Source: a virus
IMG/VR virus record: IMGVR_UViG_3300013794_000014
Coordinates: 1 to 64,000 of that record
Length of the DNA: 64,000 nt
Reading direction: 5' to 3' (one strand)
In this document: one piece after another, positions 603 through 39,143 of the stretch
Layout of the letters: each line of letters starts with the position of its first letter
How positions within the stretch are numbered: the stretch's first letter is position 1
Notes under the pieces: model-generated
The model's database searches: none
The model's input: only the letters and a program-made list of their open reading frames with translations
Told to the model about the DNA's origin: nothing
Program-made: the position numbers and the translations under genes

Positions 603-1349
603 ATGCATGGTTACAAATGTAAATACTGGATTGACAAAGACTTAGACTGTATGTACATACCATATAAGGCAATACCTGGAGAACTATTAATGCTAAACGT
701 TACAAAAGGCAATAGTAAAGTAACTAATCTAGAAGAACCCAAAAAAATCTTTCCATTGTATTCTGAGGAACCGTTAGAAGATACGCCAATTAAGATACCA
801 AAAACAGCAAAGTTAGATTGTAATTTCGAGATAGTGTTCAAATGTAAGCCAACGCCTGGAGAACCAATTTTGTACTTAACTAACAGTGACTGTATATCTG
901 AAATACATTGTATAAACGGTACTGTAGCGTTTTCGCATTACTTGGAACAGATAGCGTACATGGACTATACAACGTACAAAATGTCAGACAATGAGGTGTT
1001 TACAATCCGCCTTACACATTATCCGGCAACAAATTGTCATAAGTTACTTCATAGGGTTGGCCCAATAAAAATCGCAAAATACTTTGAAAGTGATGAACCA
1101 GATTGGACTATTCAATCAACGACAAGTACACTTGAGCAACTATATGTAATTCCACATCCGGACACATACACTATTCACAGAATAAATCCAAATGACAATG
1201 ATCTACAAATTGTATTGGTACCTAAGCGTGAGTTAGCAACACCTACTGAAACCGTCATTAAAATACCGTTACAAATTGTACGTAAGTATGTAAACGTAGA
1301 TACAGATAACCAAAAACTATTATTGACGCTAGTACCTATAAGTTTATGA
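603..1349 (+). CDS. Divergent, circularly permuted DUF2341-like protein
   Basis: Starts KYWID; KKIFPLY resembles VF.FFDDF; LYVIP followed by permuted C-terminal strands. Confidence 0.5.
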   Translation: MHGYKCKYWIDKDLDCMYIPYKAIPGELLMLNVTKGNSKVTNLEEPKKIFPLYSEEPLEDTPIKIPKTAKLDCNFEIVFKCKPTPGEPILYLTNSDCISEIHCINGTVAFSHYLEQIAYMDYTTYKMSDNEVFTIRLTHYPATNCHKLLHRVGPIKIAKYFESDEPDWTIQSTTSTLEQLYVIPHPDTYTIHRINPNDNDLQIVLVPKRELATPTETVIKIPLQIVRKYVNVDTDNQKLLLTLVPISL

Positions 1350-1358
1350 GGTGATAAC

Positions 1359-2084
1359 ATGCAACTACAAGTAGTAAACCTTAGTACAAATGAAGAATTG
1401 CCATATTGGATTGAGCAATTATGTACACCAATATTATGGACTAAAGTGACGGTTGACGCCAAAGACTATGTAACTATACAAATTCAACAAAATGGCAGTC
1501 AAGAACAAGATCCATCTAGTGTTTTTGAAGCGTTTGTAACATCAAATGGTAATGATATCAGTTCCTGTATTTGTACCTATGAAATCAAAAACAAAACAGA
1601 TGGGTTTACTGTAACATTAAGGACTAAAAGTACAAACCTAAAAAACGGTGATTACATACTAGGTGTTAACGCTTACGATTTCGACTACTTAAACATAGTA
1701 ACTACTAAGAACATGGGACATTTGGCATTTGGTTATAACCCAGAGTTTGATCATTATGTAGCGATAACAGATATAGAACCACCATATGATGGACTTTATA
1801 ACATTTCAGTTATAGAGTACGATACAATTGACTATTTTGCTACTGTAAAAGACATAAACAACATTGTGTATACGAAATACCATTATGAGGAAAGGGAACC
1901 AGAACTATCAGCATGGACAGTAAAAACTAAAGTACCATTCGAATACATGTACATAACTAAACATAATCCATTGTACGTAAAAGATATTGTAAGACAAGGT
2001 AATACTATGATAGTAAAAGTCTACAATGTGGATGATATTGAGTATAGTGCTCAGATACGTATTCCATTGCCATCAGATTGGTAA
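1359..2084 (+). CDS. Circularly permuted DUF2341-like protein
   Basis: ELPYWIEQ...ILWTKV...DPSSVFEAF; C-terminal MIVKVYN...AQIRIP. Confidence 0.65.
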   Translation: MQLQVVNLSTNEELPYWIEQLCTPILWTKVTVDAKDYVTIQIQQNGSQEQDPSSVFEAFVTSNGNDISSCICTYEIKNKTDGFTVTLRTKSTNLKNGDYILGVNAYDFDYLNIVTTKNMGHLAFGYNPEFDHYVAITDIEPPYDGLYNISVIEYDTIDYFATVKDINNIVYTKYHYEEREPELSAWTVKTKVPFEYMYITKHNPLYVKDIVRQGNTMIVKVYNVDDIEYSAQIRIPLPSDW

Positions 2085-2100
2085 TTTTTCATTTTCTTGT

Positions 2101-35974: not shown

Positions 35975-37204
35975 ATGCATATGCACACAAGCACATACAT
36001 GTATGTCGGAAAGGCCGACATTAAAATCATAAATACATCACAAACTAACTTTTACTCTTATCCAATACGGATTGAACTAAATGCCGATAACTTCCAATAT
36101 TGGGATTTTTTACAGGAAAACGGAATTGACATTTATTTTACATTGCCTGATGGTACTGAAATACCATTTTGGTGTGAATATTTTGATAAACAGAAGCAAT
36201 ACGCATTATTCTGGGTTAATATTCCTGCTATTCCTGCCGACTCTTTTATCTTTATCCATATGATTTTTGGTAACCCCAAAGAAACTGTTAATAAAAGTGA
36301 TGGTACTAAAGTATTTAAGTTTTTCAAGTTATCATCAAGTGTTGATCTCACAATACCAATATCAACATGTATGTCACAAACAAATGATAATGAACATGGG
36401 ACAAAAATCAGACTAGGATGTTCTTCAAATGATATACAAATTTTGTCAAACGAACAATGTATCATACATATGGAATCTGGTAAATTACTTGAAGTAAACA
36501 GTAATGTTTGTAAAATCGAAAATGAAAGCATTGACAAATTCAAAATTGAAATTGAAATTGGAACGACACCTGATAACATAACTAATACTAATACAAATAC
36601 AAATACAAATACTAATACTAATACTAATACTAACATTCATGTAAAAGGTAACGTTAAATACCTTTATATCAGGGAATTTATACCAGATGAGTCAATGATA
36701 AAAGTACATGTAGAAAACGCCAGTGTAAATGATCCACAGATGTATACTATACCACTTAAATCAACGTTAGTAGTTAAATCTGTTAAACAGTATATTGATA
36801 CGTTTAATATAGGTATAGATATAGAAGCACCTATTACAGAATTGAAGTTACAACGAAAACCAATAATACCTAAAGTTAGGGTATTTGTCAATAGTATAGA
36901 AATACCAGAAGATCAATTTACTGTCGATTACACAAACGGCATAATTCAATTTATAGAACCAATAGGACCAAAAGAAAAAGAACAAATGACAGATACTGTT
37001 ACAGTTACAGTAGTATACTATTACGGTTACTTTGATTTTTTAGAAGGCGTTAAAGTGACTGCATATTACAAAGATACTATCGTTGATCAAGCAATAACAG
37101 ATAAGTTTGGAAAATATCGTTTAATTGTGCCAAGGGGTTACGACATTCATGTAAAAGCAGATAGTGAACCATTATGTTCAATAACACGGTTTAGACTAGA
37201 TTAA
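35975..37204 (+). CDS. DUF2341 protein in canonical order, probable virion protein; contains an (NT)n repeat
   Basis: IKIIN...YPIRIEL...NGIDIYF...EIPFWCE...FWVNIPAIPA...FGN...DGTKVFKFF. Confidence 0.85.
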   Translation: MHMHTSTYMYVGKADIKIINTSQTNFYSYPIRIELNADNFQYWDFLQENGIDIYFTLPDGTEIPFWCEYFDKQKQYALFWVNIPAIPADSFIFIHMIFGNPKETVNKSDGTKVFKFFKLSSSVDLTIPISTCMSQTNDNEHGTKIRLGCSSNDIQILSNEQCIIHMESGKLLEVNSNVCKIENESIDKFKIEIEIGTTPDNITNTNTNTNTNTNTNTNTNIHVKGNVKYLYIREFIPDESMIKVHVENASVNDPQMYTIPLKSTLVVKSVKQYIDTFNIGIDIEAPITELKLQRKPIIPKVRVFVNSIEIPEDQFTVDYTNGIIQFIEPIGPKEKEQMTDTVTVTVVYYYGYFDFLEGVKVTAYYKDTIVDQAITDKFGKYRLIVPRGYDIHVKADSEPLCSITRFRLD

Positions 37205-37214
37205 AGTGATAATT

Positions 37215-39143
37215 ATGCCAGTGATGTTATATCCATATTGGGTCGAACAGATAGATGAAGGCGGTAAAATAAACATTTGGACAAAAGTGACTGTACCGGC
37301 TAATAGTACATTATCACTTTACATAGTAAAAGGCAATTCTACAGAACCAGATGGCAACAATGTCTTTGTCTTTTTCGATGATTTTACCGGTACTAATACT
37401 AATACTAATACTAACAATGGACTTGATACTAATAAATGGACATTAGGTGGACATTCGTATGGAACGCCAAATTATACTGTTTCAGATTCATTGTTAAAAT
37501 TGTCATCTAATAGTGTTTGGTCTGTGATACATTCAACATTGACGTTTAGTTCCAATTTCATTGTCGAATGTAAAGCACGCCTTTTAGGAATTGAACAAAG
37601 TACACGTATAATTGGTATAATTGATAGCCAAACATTTGATTCATACAAGTTTTGTTTCAAAGAAGATGGATCACTGAATATTGGTAATTATATTCAAATG
37701 TGGTTTACTGATGGAACACAACATCATATAGATCCGACTTACTATGATGTCAAAAACGATTTCCATAAATACAGGATCATTAAAGGTGAAGATGCAGTTA
37801 TTGGACAAATACTTGACAAATATGAAAATGTAATTGTAGGACATAAGTATACTACAAATAATCCTAATTGGACAACTTTAAATTGGTATATTTATGCGTT
37901 AGTATACGATGACATTGGTATCGAATATGATTACATTTATATAAGGAAGTATACACAACATGAACCGTTTGTTATAACTTATCAGGTAAATAACGATGTA
38001 ATGTATGTTGCTATAACAAATCCAAATAACAATCAATTAACGGATTATCAAGTTGCAATACCTGGAAACGGTTTCATATCAACGCCCAATGAAAGTCTAT
38101 ACATTTTAGACGAAGATGGTTTACAAGCATCTGAATCGTTAGTTGGTGAAGACTTAACGAACTTAGTACAAGTAGATCCACAGATAACGTTTAAAAAGCG
38201 TGTGAAATTATATCTAACTAAGAATCTTCCTGAACAATCAACTGATGTTATTCTTCATATACCGCCACAGTTGAGTACATTCTGGGAGCATCGTGGAAAA
38301 AACTTAGTATTAACAGATAAAAATAACAATGTTTTAAGTTTTAAAATAACAAGTGAAAGCCTCAATGAATTATATGGTATTGTATATGGATTATCAAATT
38401 ATACAATTTACGATACTTTCTATCTTTATTTTGATGATGGTCTTGCTCGAAGTCAATATGGTTTAGTTCCAAAGGCAGAATGTCCATATGATGCTGAATA
38501 TAAGTTAGTACCACGTTTAGAAAGCACAGGAGTTATTTTGAAATTTCCGTTTATGCCGTCACATGAATTTGATCCTGACAATATTTGTATATTTGATAGT
38601 AGTCGTAAATTACGTTACTTATTTGATACATATAACAAGGAATTATTTGTCAAACTACCTTATTTGTTAACAAGTACTGGTTTAACACTGTATATTTATC
38701 CGAAAGATTTGCCTAACGATGATTTAGGGCCATTAGATACCGTAATTTATCCTTGTCAAGTAAAACAGTTACAAATTGAAACAAAACAAGATACATTTAT
38801 AGGTGATATTTTAGCTATAAATGGTATAGTTTACGTGACGTTACAAAAATGGGTTGAAGATAACCCAAAACTCGGAATATTTAGTATTGAAGAAGCACCA
38901 GACGTTATTTCACGCTACGGAAGTTTCGGGAAAATTTATAAGGCTATATTACATATTGCAAATTTATTGGAGTTGAAACGGCTAGAACGCGACTTACAGA
39001 ATGAAACTGTACAAGTTACATGGGACGACGAAAAATTCATTGCAGTTCCAACACAATATAGGAATCAAATGATATTAAGTGGAGATGACAAATATTATCT
39101 AGTGGAAATTGCATTACATAGGGTCAAAGATATTAGGATATAG
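37215..39143 (+). CDS. Multi-domain virion protein: permuted DUF2341/lectin-like N-terminal module plus further degenerate modules
   Basis: YPYWVEQ...IWTKVTVPA...VFVFFDDF...YDYIYIRKY..HEP...VAITNPNNNQLTDYQVAI...SLYILDEDG. Confidence 0.8.
   Translation: MPVMLYPYWVEQIDEGGKINIWTKVTVPANSTLSLYIVKGNSTEPDGNNVFVFFDDFTGTNTNTNTNNGLDTNKWTLGGHSYGTPNYTVSDSLLKLSSNSVWSVIHSTLTFSSNFIVECKARLLGIEQSTRIIGIIDSQTFDSYKFCFKEDGSLNIGNYIQMWFTDGTQHHIDPTYYDVKNDFHKYRIIKGEDAVIGQILDKYENVIVGHKYTTNNPNWTTLNWYIYALVYDDIGIEYDYIYIRKYTQHEPFVITYQVNNDVMYVAITNPNNNQLTDYQVAIPGNGFISTPNESLYILDEDGLQASESLVGEDLTNLVQVDPQITFKKRVKLYLTKNLPEQSTDVILHIPPQLSTFWEHRGKNLVLTDKNNNVLSFKITSESLNELYGIVYGLSNYTIYDTFYLYFDDGLARSQYGLVPKAECPYDAEYKLVPRLESTGVILKFPFMPSHEFDPDNICIFDSSRKLRYLFDTYNKELFVKLPYLLTSTGLTLYIYPKDLPNDDLGPLDTVIYPCQVKQLQIETKQDTFIGDILAINGIVYVTLQKWVEDNPKLGIFSIEEAPDVISRYGSFGKIYKAILHIANLLELKRLERDLQNETVQVTWDDEKFIAVPTQYRNQMILSGDDKYYLVEIALHRVKDIRI

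Follow-up and report, generated by a model that had tools for sequence, protein, structure and literature searches.

Large DUF2341 proteins encoded in type IV pilus loci of Methanococci have been proposed as tip adhesins by analogy with PilY (PMC4858521). Ordinary DUF2341 proteins carry two groups of strands in a fixed order: the "tail" (T; strands I.I.N, LTDYQV.I, and DIRF.D.DG) is N-terminal and stands immediately ahead of the "head" (H; strands PYW.E, W.KV, and ..Y...G), which ends right before VF.FFDDF. We analyzed the first 64 kb (hereafter, the window) of the complete 141,059-bp genome of the virus IMGVR_UViG_3300013794_000014, an AT-rich stretch (G+C content of 31–35%) with nearly all genes on the + strand; genes are referred to by their first nucleotide. 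The first module of gene 37215 (37215–39143) is the clearest unit with a permuted order of these parts: its two segments, each showing homology to the canonical module, are swapped and occur once per module.

Six of the nine genes listed in the initial annotation as head-first DUF2341 paralogs (37215, 24174, 25112, 25982, 1359, and 27145) are supported as permuted; two (603 and 27741) are marginal, and the ninth, listed as 5338, gave no signal. A seventh head-first gene, 64203–66440, lies just beyond the window. The permutation is a variant, unannotated so far, of a known kind of event and not a new type of system; no description of circular permutation in DUF2341 proteins was found in the literature searched.

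Permuted order in gene 37215 and its paralogs

All sequence strings on which the initial annotation relied were present in the translations. Gene 37215 reads MPVMLYPYWVEQ... and later ...YIYIRKYTQHEP...VAITNPNNNQLTDYQVAIP...NESLYILDEDG, while gene 24174 ends in ...VIEVSN..ISIDV..NEGLRILNISMTD. The canonical order, quoted for 35975, 60744, and 62856, was confirmed by Pfam and hhalign in 35975, 61609, and 62856 and weakly in 60744. In 35975, Pfam DUF2341 (PF10102, gathering score of 23.4 bits) covered amino acids (aa) 49–117 with profile positions 1–68 (2e-13, 50.8 bits), and the canonical small-domain profile was matched over aa 14–118 (hhalign 98.7%); the Pfam match was likewise internal in 61609 (aa 116–185) and 62856 (aa 315–381). 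In 37215, the same family matched aa 7–76 from profile position 16 onward (2.5e-11, 44.3 bits).

A hidden Markov model (HMM) of the canonical unit, made from 27 database modules, matched 37215 in swapped order, with positions 64–304 at aa 8–256 (2e-49) and the N-half at aa 268–285. The latter segment was also recognized by an HMM of the N-half only (3e-4), ranking second of the 229 open reading frames (ORFs) of the genome after canonical 35975, and by an HMM of external tails (5e-18). The initial annotation had staked its claim on the alignment of the C-terminal segments with the DUF2341 N-terminal strands, and at family level they do align: a tail profile of 20 external permuted proteins matched the profile of the canonical N-half with hhalign 96.2% and E 2e-9, pairing ItN..LTDYQI.Ip with ItI..LTDYQV.i and the last strand with DIRF. 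Pfam searches with isolated tails gave no family at E up to 10.

The head was traced with an HMM built exclusively from database proteins and searched against the 229 ORFs. It matched at residues 1–13 in seven genes: 37215 (4e-16), 64203 (3e-10), 1359 (1e-7), 25112 (3e-6), 27145 (6e-5), 24174 (1e-4), and 25982 (1e-2). Pfam DUF2341 was found at the extreme N-terminus of 37215, 24174 (0.003), and 1359 (0.007), in each case without the first 10–16 profile positions; 24174 (18.2 bits) and 1359 (17.2 bits) fall under the Pfam gathering cut-off because the first 10–15 positions are missing. Pfam gave no DUF2341 match for 25112, 25982, 27145, 27741, and 603, and the custom head profile is their only link to the family.

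These beginnings are true gene starts. The eight ATG starts have an in-frame stop 2–24 codons upstream and a GGTGAT-like ribosome site ahead of each, and therefore no N-half is concealed upstream; across all the candidates, the stops lie 2–27 codons upstream, which is too short for an N-half of about 50 residues. Adjacent genes are separate, with ribosome sites of their own, and some pairs are in different frames. Read-through was considered for the two pairs that share a frame, 603/1359 and 62847–64190/64203–66440, and rejected on the grounds of the own ribosome sites and, in the second pair, of two stops; the spacing of 603 and 1359, which differs in a related contig, also counts against it.

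AlphaFold monomer models were calculated for two permuted proteins, 37215 aa 1–310 (with a 26-sequence alignment) and 1359. Structure prediction of monomers had been suggested as a check, and 37215 folded confidently with its tail in one chain: the mean predicted local distance difference test score (pLDDT) was 84.5 and the predicted template modeling score (pTM) was 0.87, with pLDDT values of 86–98 for the head and 92–98 for the tail. Modeled strands were at residues 8–12, 19–27, and 32–39 in the head and at 252–257, 262–268, 275–283, and 295–298 in the tail. When the model was compared by VIA with 48,161 PDB chains, 246 of them were found at Z of at least 8, and residues 50–247 matched 4bow_A with Z 17.9 and a root-mean-square deviation of 2.5 over 181 aligned residues (51–245). 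This match to GH16/ConA-like jelly rolls indicates that, in the model, the lectin fold is complete without head or tail, which together make up a unit of their own with about seven strands. The idea that the two halves complete a domain is thus to be narrowed: it does not apply to the jelly roll, which is whole by itself, and it would hold for the small DUF2341 unit around the jelly roll, which is the permuted part.

Loops with Thr-Asn repeats (TNTNTN...) were observed in 35975 (aa 203–220; window 36570–36640) and 37215 (aa 60–67; window 37395–37420). The run of 37215 belongs to a loop that was modeled with low confidence (pLDDT below 50 at aa 62–65).

Other head-first genes and the unbalanced pair

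The genes analyzed are listed in Table 1.

Table 1. Head-first candidates and canonical-order genes of the window.
Gene	Coordinates	Strand	Description
37215	37215–38144 (first module of 37215–39143)	+	Head aa 1–49, ConA/GH16-like jelly roll aa 50–247, tail aa 248–301
24174	24174–25058	+	Permuted: head, divergent lectin-like body, tail ending ...NEGLRILNISMTD; stop 2 codons upstream
25112	25112–25891	+	Permuted: head well supported, tail weak; middle not alignable to neighbors
25982	25982–26818	+	Permuted; close paralog of 24174 (phmmer 1e-83)
1359	1359–2084	+	Permuted, other breakpoint: start MQLQVVN...LPYWIE (one strand earlier), end ...IRIPLPSDW (one strand earlier)
27145	27145–27753	+	Short head-first relative of 1359 (phmmer 1e-5); tail by alignment and eye only
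27741	27741–28367	+	Possible head-first gene; membership not established
603	603–1349	+	Possible head-first gene; membership marginal
5451	5451–6023	+	ORF meant by 5338; TTG start, no ribosome site, stop 27 codons upstream; not supported
35975	35975–37204	+	Canonical comparator: tail, head (aa 14–118), then body
62847	62847–64000 (gene 62847–64190, beyond window end)	+	Two canonical small domains, then FFDEF-IVKY..P, then tail-like segment

Relocation of the canonical N-half to the C-terminal end, claimed for all nine candidates, was supported statistically in 37215, 24174, and 25982 and more weakly in 25112, 1359, and 27145; no tail was detected in 603, 27741, and 5451 by either the tail HMM or C-terminal hhalign. 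Gene 24174 matched the external permuted-family profile over aa 1–289 in full length (hhalign 96.4%, E 1e-9), and its tail was found by the external tail HMM (4e-4). The tail of 25982 reached the same HMM value (4e-4) after one iteration, while that of 25112 has as its sole support a collinear BLASTP match of aa 221–258 to 24174 (E 0.008). Middles are as divergent as originally described: BLASTP aligned 24174 with 25112 at the head (E 4e-10), at the tail, and nowhere in between. A single-sequence hhalign comparison in which the C-terminal 65 residues of each of 159 ORFs were set against the N-half profile was too weak for the short paralogs; the C-termini that stood out in it were those of 62847–64190 (rank 1), 24174 (rank 2), and 1359 (rank 9).

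Gene 25982 stops at TAA and lacks the last tail strand. The next reading frame (window 26800–26840), AAA TTA AGA GTT CTT TAT TAA, encodes KLRVLY and a stop, identical to the C-terminal end of a database homolog (P0003). The strand was cut off either by a frame change of 1 nucleotide (nt) at about 26805–26815 or through an error in the assembly. Downstream of this gene, at window 26870–27154, there is a short ORF that resembles a zinc ribbon, contains several CxxC pairs, and is split between two frames at about 27000–27010; a frameshift or a sequencing error is possible.

The body of 1359 is a small, galectin-sized jelly roll (aa 53–203 matched lectin folds with Z 10–11). In its AlphaFold model (pTM 0.78), the four head strands had pLDDT values of 83–96 and the three tail strands 82–93, compared with 53–71 for the body. 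A confident head and tail beside a poor body would fit packing of head and tail against each other. The first strand, MQLQVVN, is of the DIRF type, and the start is kept in three homologs. Strands are divided 4 + 3 in 1359 and 3 + 4 in 37215; one strand has switched ends, with neither duplication nor loss of any strand. The tails of 1359 and 27145 were placed by MAFFT, in an alignment where a single Asn is invariant in 18 sequences, and that of 1359 also by the model. No significant tail HMM match was obtained for 27145, the head of which was recognized over aa 3–50 (hhalign 96.2%).

Homolog searches gave one protein for 603 (92% identical), two for 24174, and three for 1359, those of 24174 and 1359 all on short contigs. 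A contig of a related virus (JGI sample 3300013798, 2871 bp) retains the 603–1359 pair with a spacer of 62 nt vs. 9 nt; it is this contig that carries the 603 homolog, and its 1359 homolog is 47% identical with the first 19 residues unchanged. We also considered whether the bodies could be GH16 enzymes. The catalytic pattern E-x-D-x(x)-E was absent from all nine candidates; the bodies are lectin-like and are not enzymes.

The block from 60744 to 67833, which is structural, resembles one long tandem array of tail-head-body modules. Genes 61609 and 66454 are of the tail-head-LamG_3 type; their paralog 64203 (phmmer 4e-29) runs head-LamG_3-tail, followed by a second head and body. Sequence searches of the PDB yielded nothing useful, the single match being of the LamG type, for 61609 (E 0.06). 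Within this block, two adjacent genes are unbalanced. The canonical small domains of 62847–64190 were matched at aa 270–391 (hhalign 97.2%) and aa 76–165 (68.7%). At its C-terminal end the jelly roll is deleted (FFDEF-IVKY..P), and YRVTIHNPYEKRIFYPIKLPI...LTGYEIVPESE follows; this terminal tail is borderline (HMM 0.011, then 0.0047; hhalign 0.8%) and ranks first by hhalign score among the 159 C-termini. Gene 64203–66440 begins with MSLPYWITG 12 nt after 62847–64190, and the loop across the junction has the length of the canonical loop; its internal tail lies at aa 284–328 (1e-5). Each gene alone is unbalanced in heads and tails, and the two are jointly balanced with four tails and four heads. 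If every half needs a partner, the unbalanced halves require one pairing between the proteins. The search for related loci found no viral relatives of either gene. A stretch of 64203–66440 that is PA14-like by eye is shared with 57342–58874.

Several further features of the window were observed. At positions 17240–22468, about ten genes with products of about 180 aa stand in tandem; they belong to two interleaved paralog families (6 and 4 members, phmmer). At the beginning of the first ORF (window 1–531), the peptide SNAWSIIV occurs in four directly repeated copies. The ORF at 46264–47730 gave PHROG matches to glutamine-fructose-6-phosphate aminotransferase (4e-48) and to QueC-like queuosine biosynthesis (3e-27).

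Origin of the permuted order and alternative readings

The permuted order, which the initial annotation proposed to look for in other genomes, was found in archaea, bacteria, and viral contigs. When 1.84 billion representatives were searched in full by HMMER with 37215 aa 1–310, 322 matches were obtained. A separate scan of genomes and viral contigs revealed relatives in Methanolobus, Methanosarcina, Aenigmatarchaeota, Thermococcus, Archaeoglobus, bacteria of the Candidate Phyla Radiation, and IMG/VR contigs. Among the best 149 external matches of the 322, which were annotated with head and tail profiles, 57 were head-tail, 36 tail-head, 13 THTH, and 7 HTHT, and 118/149 were balanced; since the survey and the contig samples were seeded with a permuted query, these numbers show that the order exists elsewhere and give no frequency. 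Proteins of up to 360 aa were head-tail in 19/45 cases and tail-head in 17/45, and none of the 45 had a tail at both ends. In many unrelated proteins, the module is self-contained in either order.

The head lies within 10 residues of the initial Met in 22 head-tail proteins (for example, MTTYPFWIEHDENG and MALPYWIEQ...). It lies at residues 11–50 in 28 others, with a hydrophobic leader in 24/28; in a further 17, it is set back by more than 50 residues in a larger protein and has no tail ahead of it. A membrane anchor is present at the C-terminal end of some head-tail proteins (P0034 and P0042). Stop-proven head-first ORFs were found in three IMG/VR contigs, in the three P0050-carrying Logan metagenome contigs, and, behind a signal peptide, in one Micavibrio metagenome-assembled genome. 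The permuted order is widespread among archaea, bacteria, and viral contigs and did not originate in the present virus.

We consider an intramolecular, self-closing circular permutation of a two-domain module, followed by amplification, to be the best reading of these data and a likely one. This option, one of two put forward in the initial annotation, is supported by the homology of the halves, the single copy of each half, the self-contained proteins of both orders, and the confident monomer. The proteins would be two-part modules of the adhesin type, made of a complete ConA/GH16-like lectin jelly roll and a small beta unit with about seven strands; Pfam DUF2341 spans just a part of this unit. 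The canonical chain passes through the N-half of the small unit (tail strands), its C-half (head strands), and the jelly roll; in 37215, 24174, 25112, 25982, 1359, 27145, and 64203, it passes through head strands, jelly roll, and tail strands. The permuted chain would exit the small unit, build the jelly roll, and re-enter the small unit to complete it, all within one molecule. In a ConA-like jelly roll, the first strand is expected to be a neighbor of the last one; if this is so here, the chain could return and finish the small unit in the same molecule. On this reading, head and tail would be in physical contact within one chain.

The permuted genes probably originated from tandem arrays in which tail-head-body was repeated and gene or domain boundaries were shifted, with subsequent copying within the virus. 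The tail-head-LamG_3 order of 61609 and 66454 vs. the head-LamG_3-tail order of their paralog 64203 fits the prediction of such a route by duplication and new boundaries. The conserved head and tail would serve as a constant frame and the fast-diverging middle as the glycan-binding part; the most likely function is the recognition of host-surface glycans, with which a constant frame combined with a fast-changing binding part would be in keeping. The "tail cluster" of the initial annotation was not confirmed: PHROGs on ten neighboring genes gave one weak match, to a baseplate hub (39154–39801, 0.0019). At least the copy beside this match would be located in the virion.

Several points weigh against a self-closing permutation. 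Head-tail contact is deduced from pLDDT, pTM, and strand counts, and a monomer run of AlphaFold is blind to an exchange of strands or domains between chains. Profiles recognize the tails of 1359, 27145, and 25112 weakly or not at all, and those of 603, 27741, and 5451 are undetectable. Large cellular proteins often have a surplus of tail-like matches over heads (e.g., THTHT); the tail may sometimes occur without a head, or the tail profile may also catch other immunoglobulin-like strands, so that this surplus weighs both ways. In gene 64203, heads outnumber tails by two to one. Glycan binding and location in the virion are themselves what we infer, and the PHROGs search gave no more than the weak baseplate-hub match next door.

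The other option put forward in the initial annotation was a plug-and-socket arrangement, in which a head would be completed by the tail of a different chain and chains, or docking on a carrier, would be built through domain reconstitution or runaway swapping. In 603–1359, 24174–25112–25982, and 27145–27741, a tail directly precedes the head of the next gene, just as the tail-like end of 62847–64190 precedes head-first 64203–66440 at canonical loop length, with balance reached only by the two together; such a circular permutant could, in principle, either self-close or swap. However, all the single-module proteins contain a single head and a single tail, and pairing between chains is not forced on them; head-body-tail also occurs inside large proteins and behind cell-surface signal peptides with no visible partner; the 37215 monomer positions its tail confidently; and adjacent genes are separate, with own ribosome sites, some pairs being out of frame. 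With the terminal tail of 62847–64190 being borderline as well, we regard this arrangement as improbable. The more specific case, in which this tail snaps onto a head of 64203–66440 and the scattered head-first lectins dock by half-domain exchange on tail-bearing virion proteins, seems to us unlikely to the same degree.

Less probable still, and in our opinion very doubtful, is the view that the modules are vestigial leftovers of a tandem-repeat gene with boundaries inside the small domain, the orphan head and tail being unpaired and the jelly roll alone being of importance. The completeness of the jelly roll without them, the loss of the last tail strand in 25982, and the barely recognizable tails of the short paralogs agree with it; however, conservation is highest in head and tail, in contrast to the diverging middles, head and tail have the highest pLDDT in both models, the arrangement is retained in dozens of unrelated lineages, and each strand is present exactly once although breakpoints vary. 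For 603, 27741, and 5451 only, the chances are about even that they are unrelated small beta proteins with a fortuitous resemblance of beta-strands. The head HMM value of 603 was 0.0096 on entering the iterated search (aa 9–56), that of 27741 was 0.16 before its own inclusion (hhalign 12%, E 0.0024), and 5451–6023 had neither a head nor a tail match in profile searches and no ESM Atlas match. Their C-termini ranked 31st, 49th, and 94th among the 159 ORFs. The gene start given as 5338 was wrong: it is out of frame, and translation from it contains 16 stops. On the other hand, the marginal matches of 603 and 27741 lie right at the N-terminus and extend over the entire head profile, like those of true members, both genes stand in tandem with true members, and the nearest ESM Atlas cluster of 603 is named ConA-like (score 0.87), although this is a lead only.

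Significance and comparison with known systems

The permuted order matters for annotation, to which, although common, it is at present invisible: Pfam DUF2341 is truncated and the tail is unmodeled, which leaves the proteins below the threshold or "hypothetical". A profile of the head-body-tail type would name many surface proteins of archaea, bacteria, and viruses. At least seven modules with constant frames and fast-changing lectin middles point to a diversified set for host-glycan recognition, and, to our knowledge, little is known about the attachment of methanogen viruses. Two breakpoints in one genome (1359 vs. 37215) and both orders on a LamG_3 body (61609/66454 vs. 64203) make up a clean natural example of permutation via a tandem array. 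The unbalanced neighbors 62847–64190 and 64203–66440 offer one concrete candidate for split-domain docking; if half-domain docking were true, an archaeal virus would carry an exchangeable set of host-binding modules.

Among described proteins, canonical DUF2341 modules with ConA-like or LamG_3 bodies are the closest. The motifs ..LTDYQV.I.., DIRF.D.DG, PYWIE, W.KV, VFEFFDDF, and DY..VRKY..EP are common to both, as is the jelly-roll body, and the canonical-unit HMM covers 37215. The difference is that here the tail strands follow the body instead of standing ahead of the head; because of this swapped order, the Pfam model loses its first 10–16 positions and leaves the tail uncovered.

The bodies are similar in fold to the Dit CBM2 of Lactobacillus phage J-1 (5ly8, Z 15.0), a baseplate protein of mycobacteriophage Douge (8zdo, Z 14.3), the receptor-binding domain of TM4 gp23 (9n6a, Z 9.4), and the minor pilin PilC of S. 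sanguinis (7oa7, Z 11.3). All four are surface recognition proteins of viruses or pili; they have no detectable sequence relation to the present bodies, and a shared fold is no proof of a shared function. None of them is known to carry a DUF2341 head-tail frame.

In chaperone-usher pili (FimA, PapA), each subunit is short of one strand and carries a spare strand for its neighbor. The plug-and-socket arrangement would resemble them in that an incomplete beta unit is completed by strands from elsewhere; unlike these pili, single modules here hold the full set of strands once, and neither a chaperone nor an usher is present.

Concanavalin A is, relative to other legume lectins, the textbook circular permutation of a jelly roll, and it arises post-translationally with the three-dimensional structure unchanged. 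The present case is like it in that a circular permutation is tied to a ConA-like lectin; unlike in concanavalin A, the jelly roll of 37215 is in the normal order, as judged by its sequential match at Z 17.9, and what is permuted, at the level of the gene, is the accessory small unit around it.

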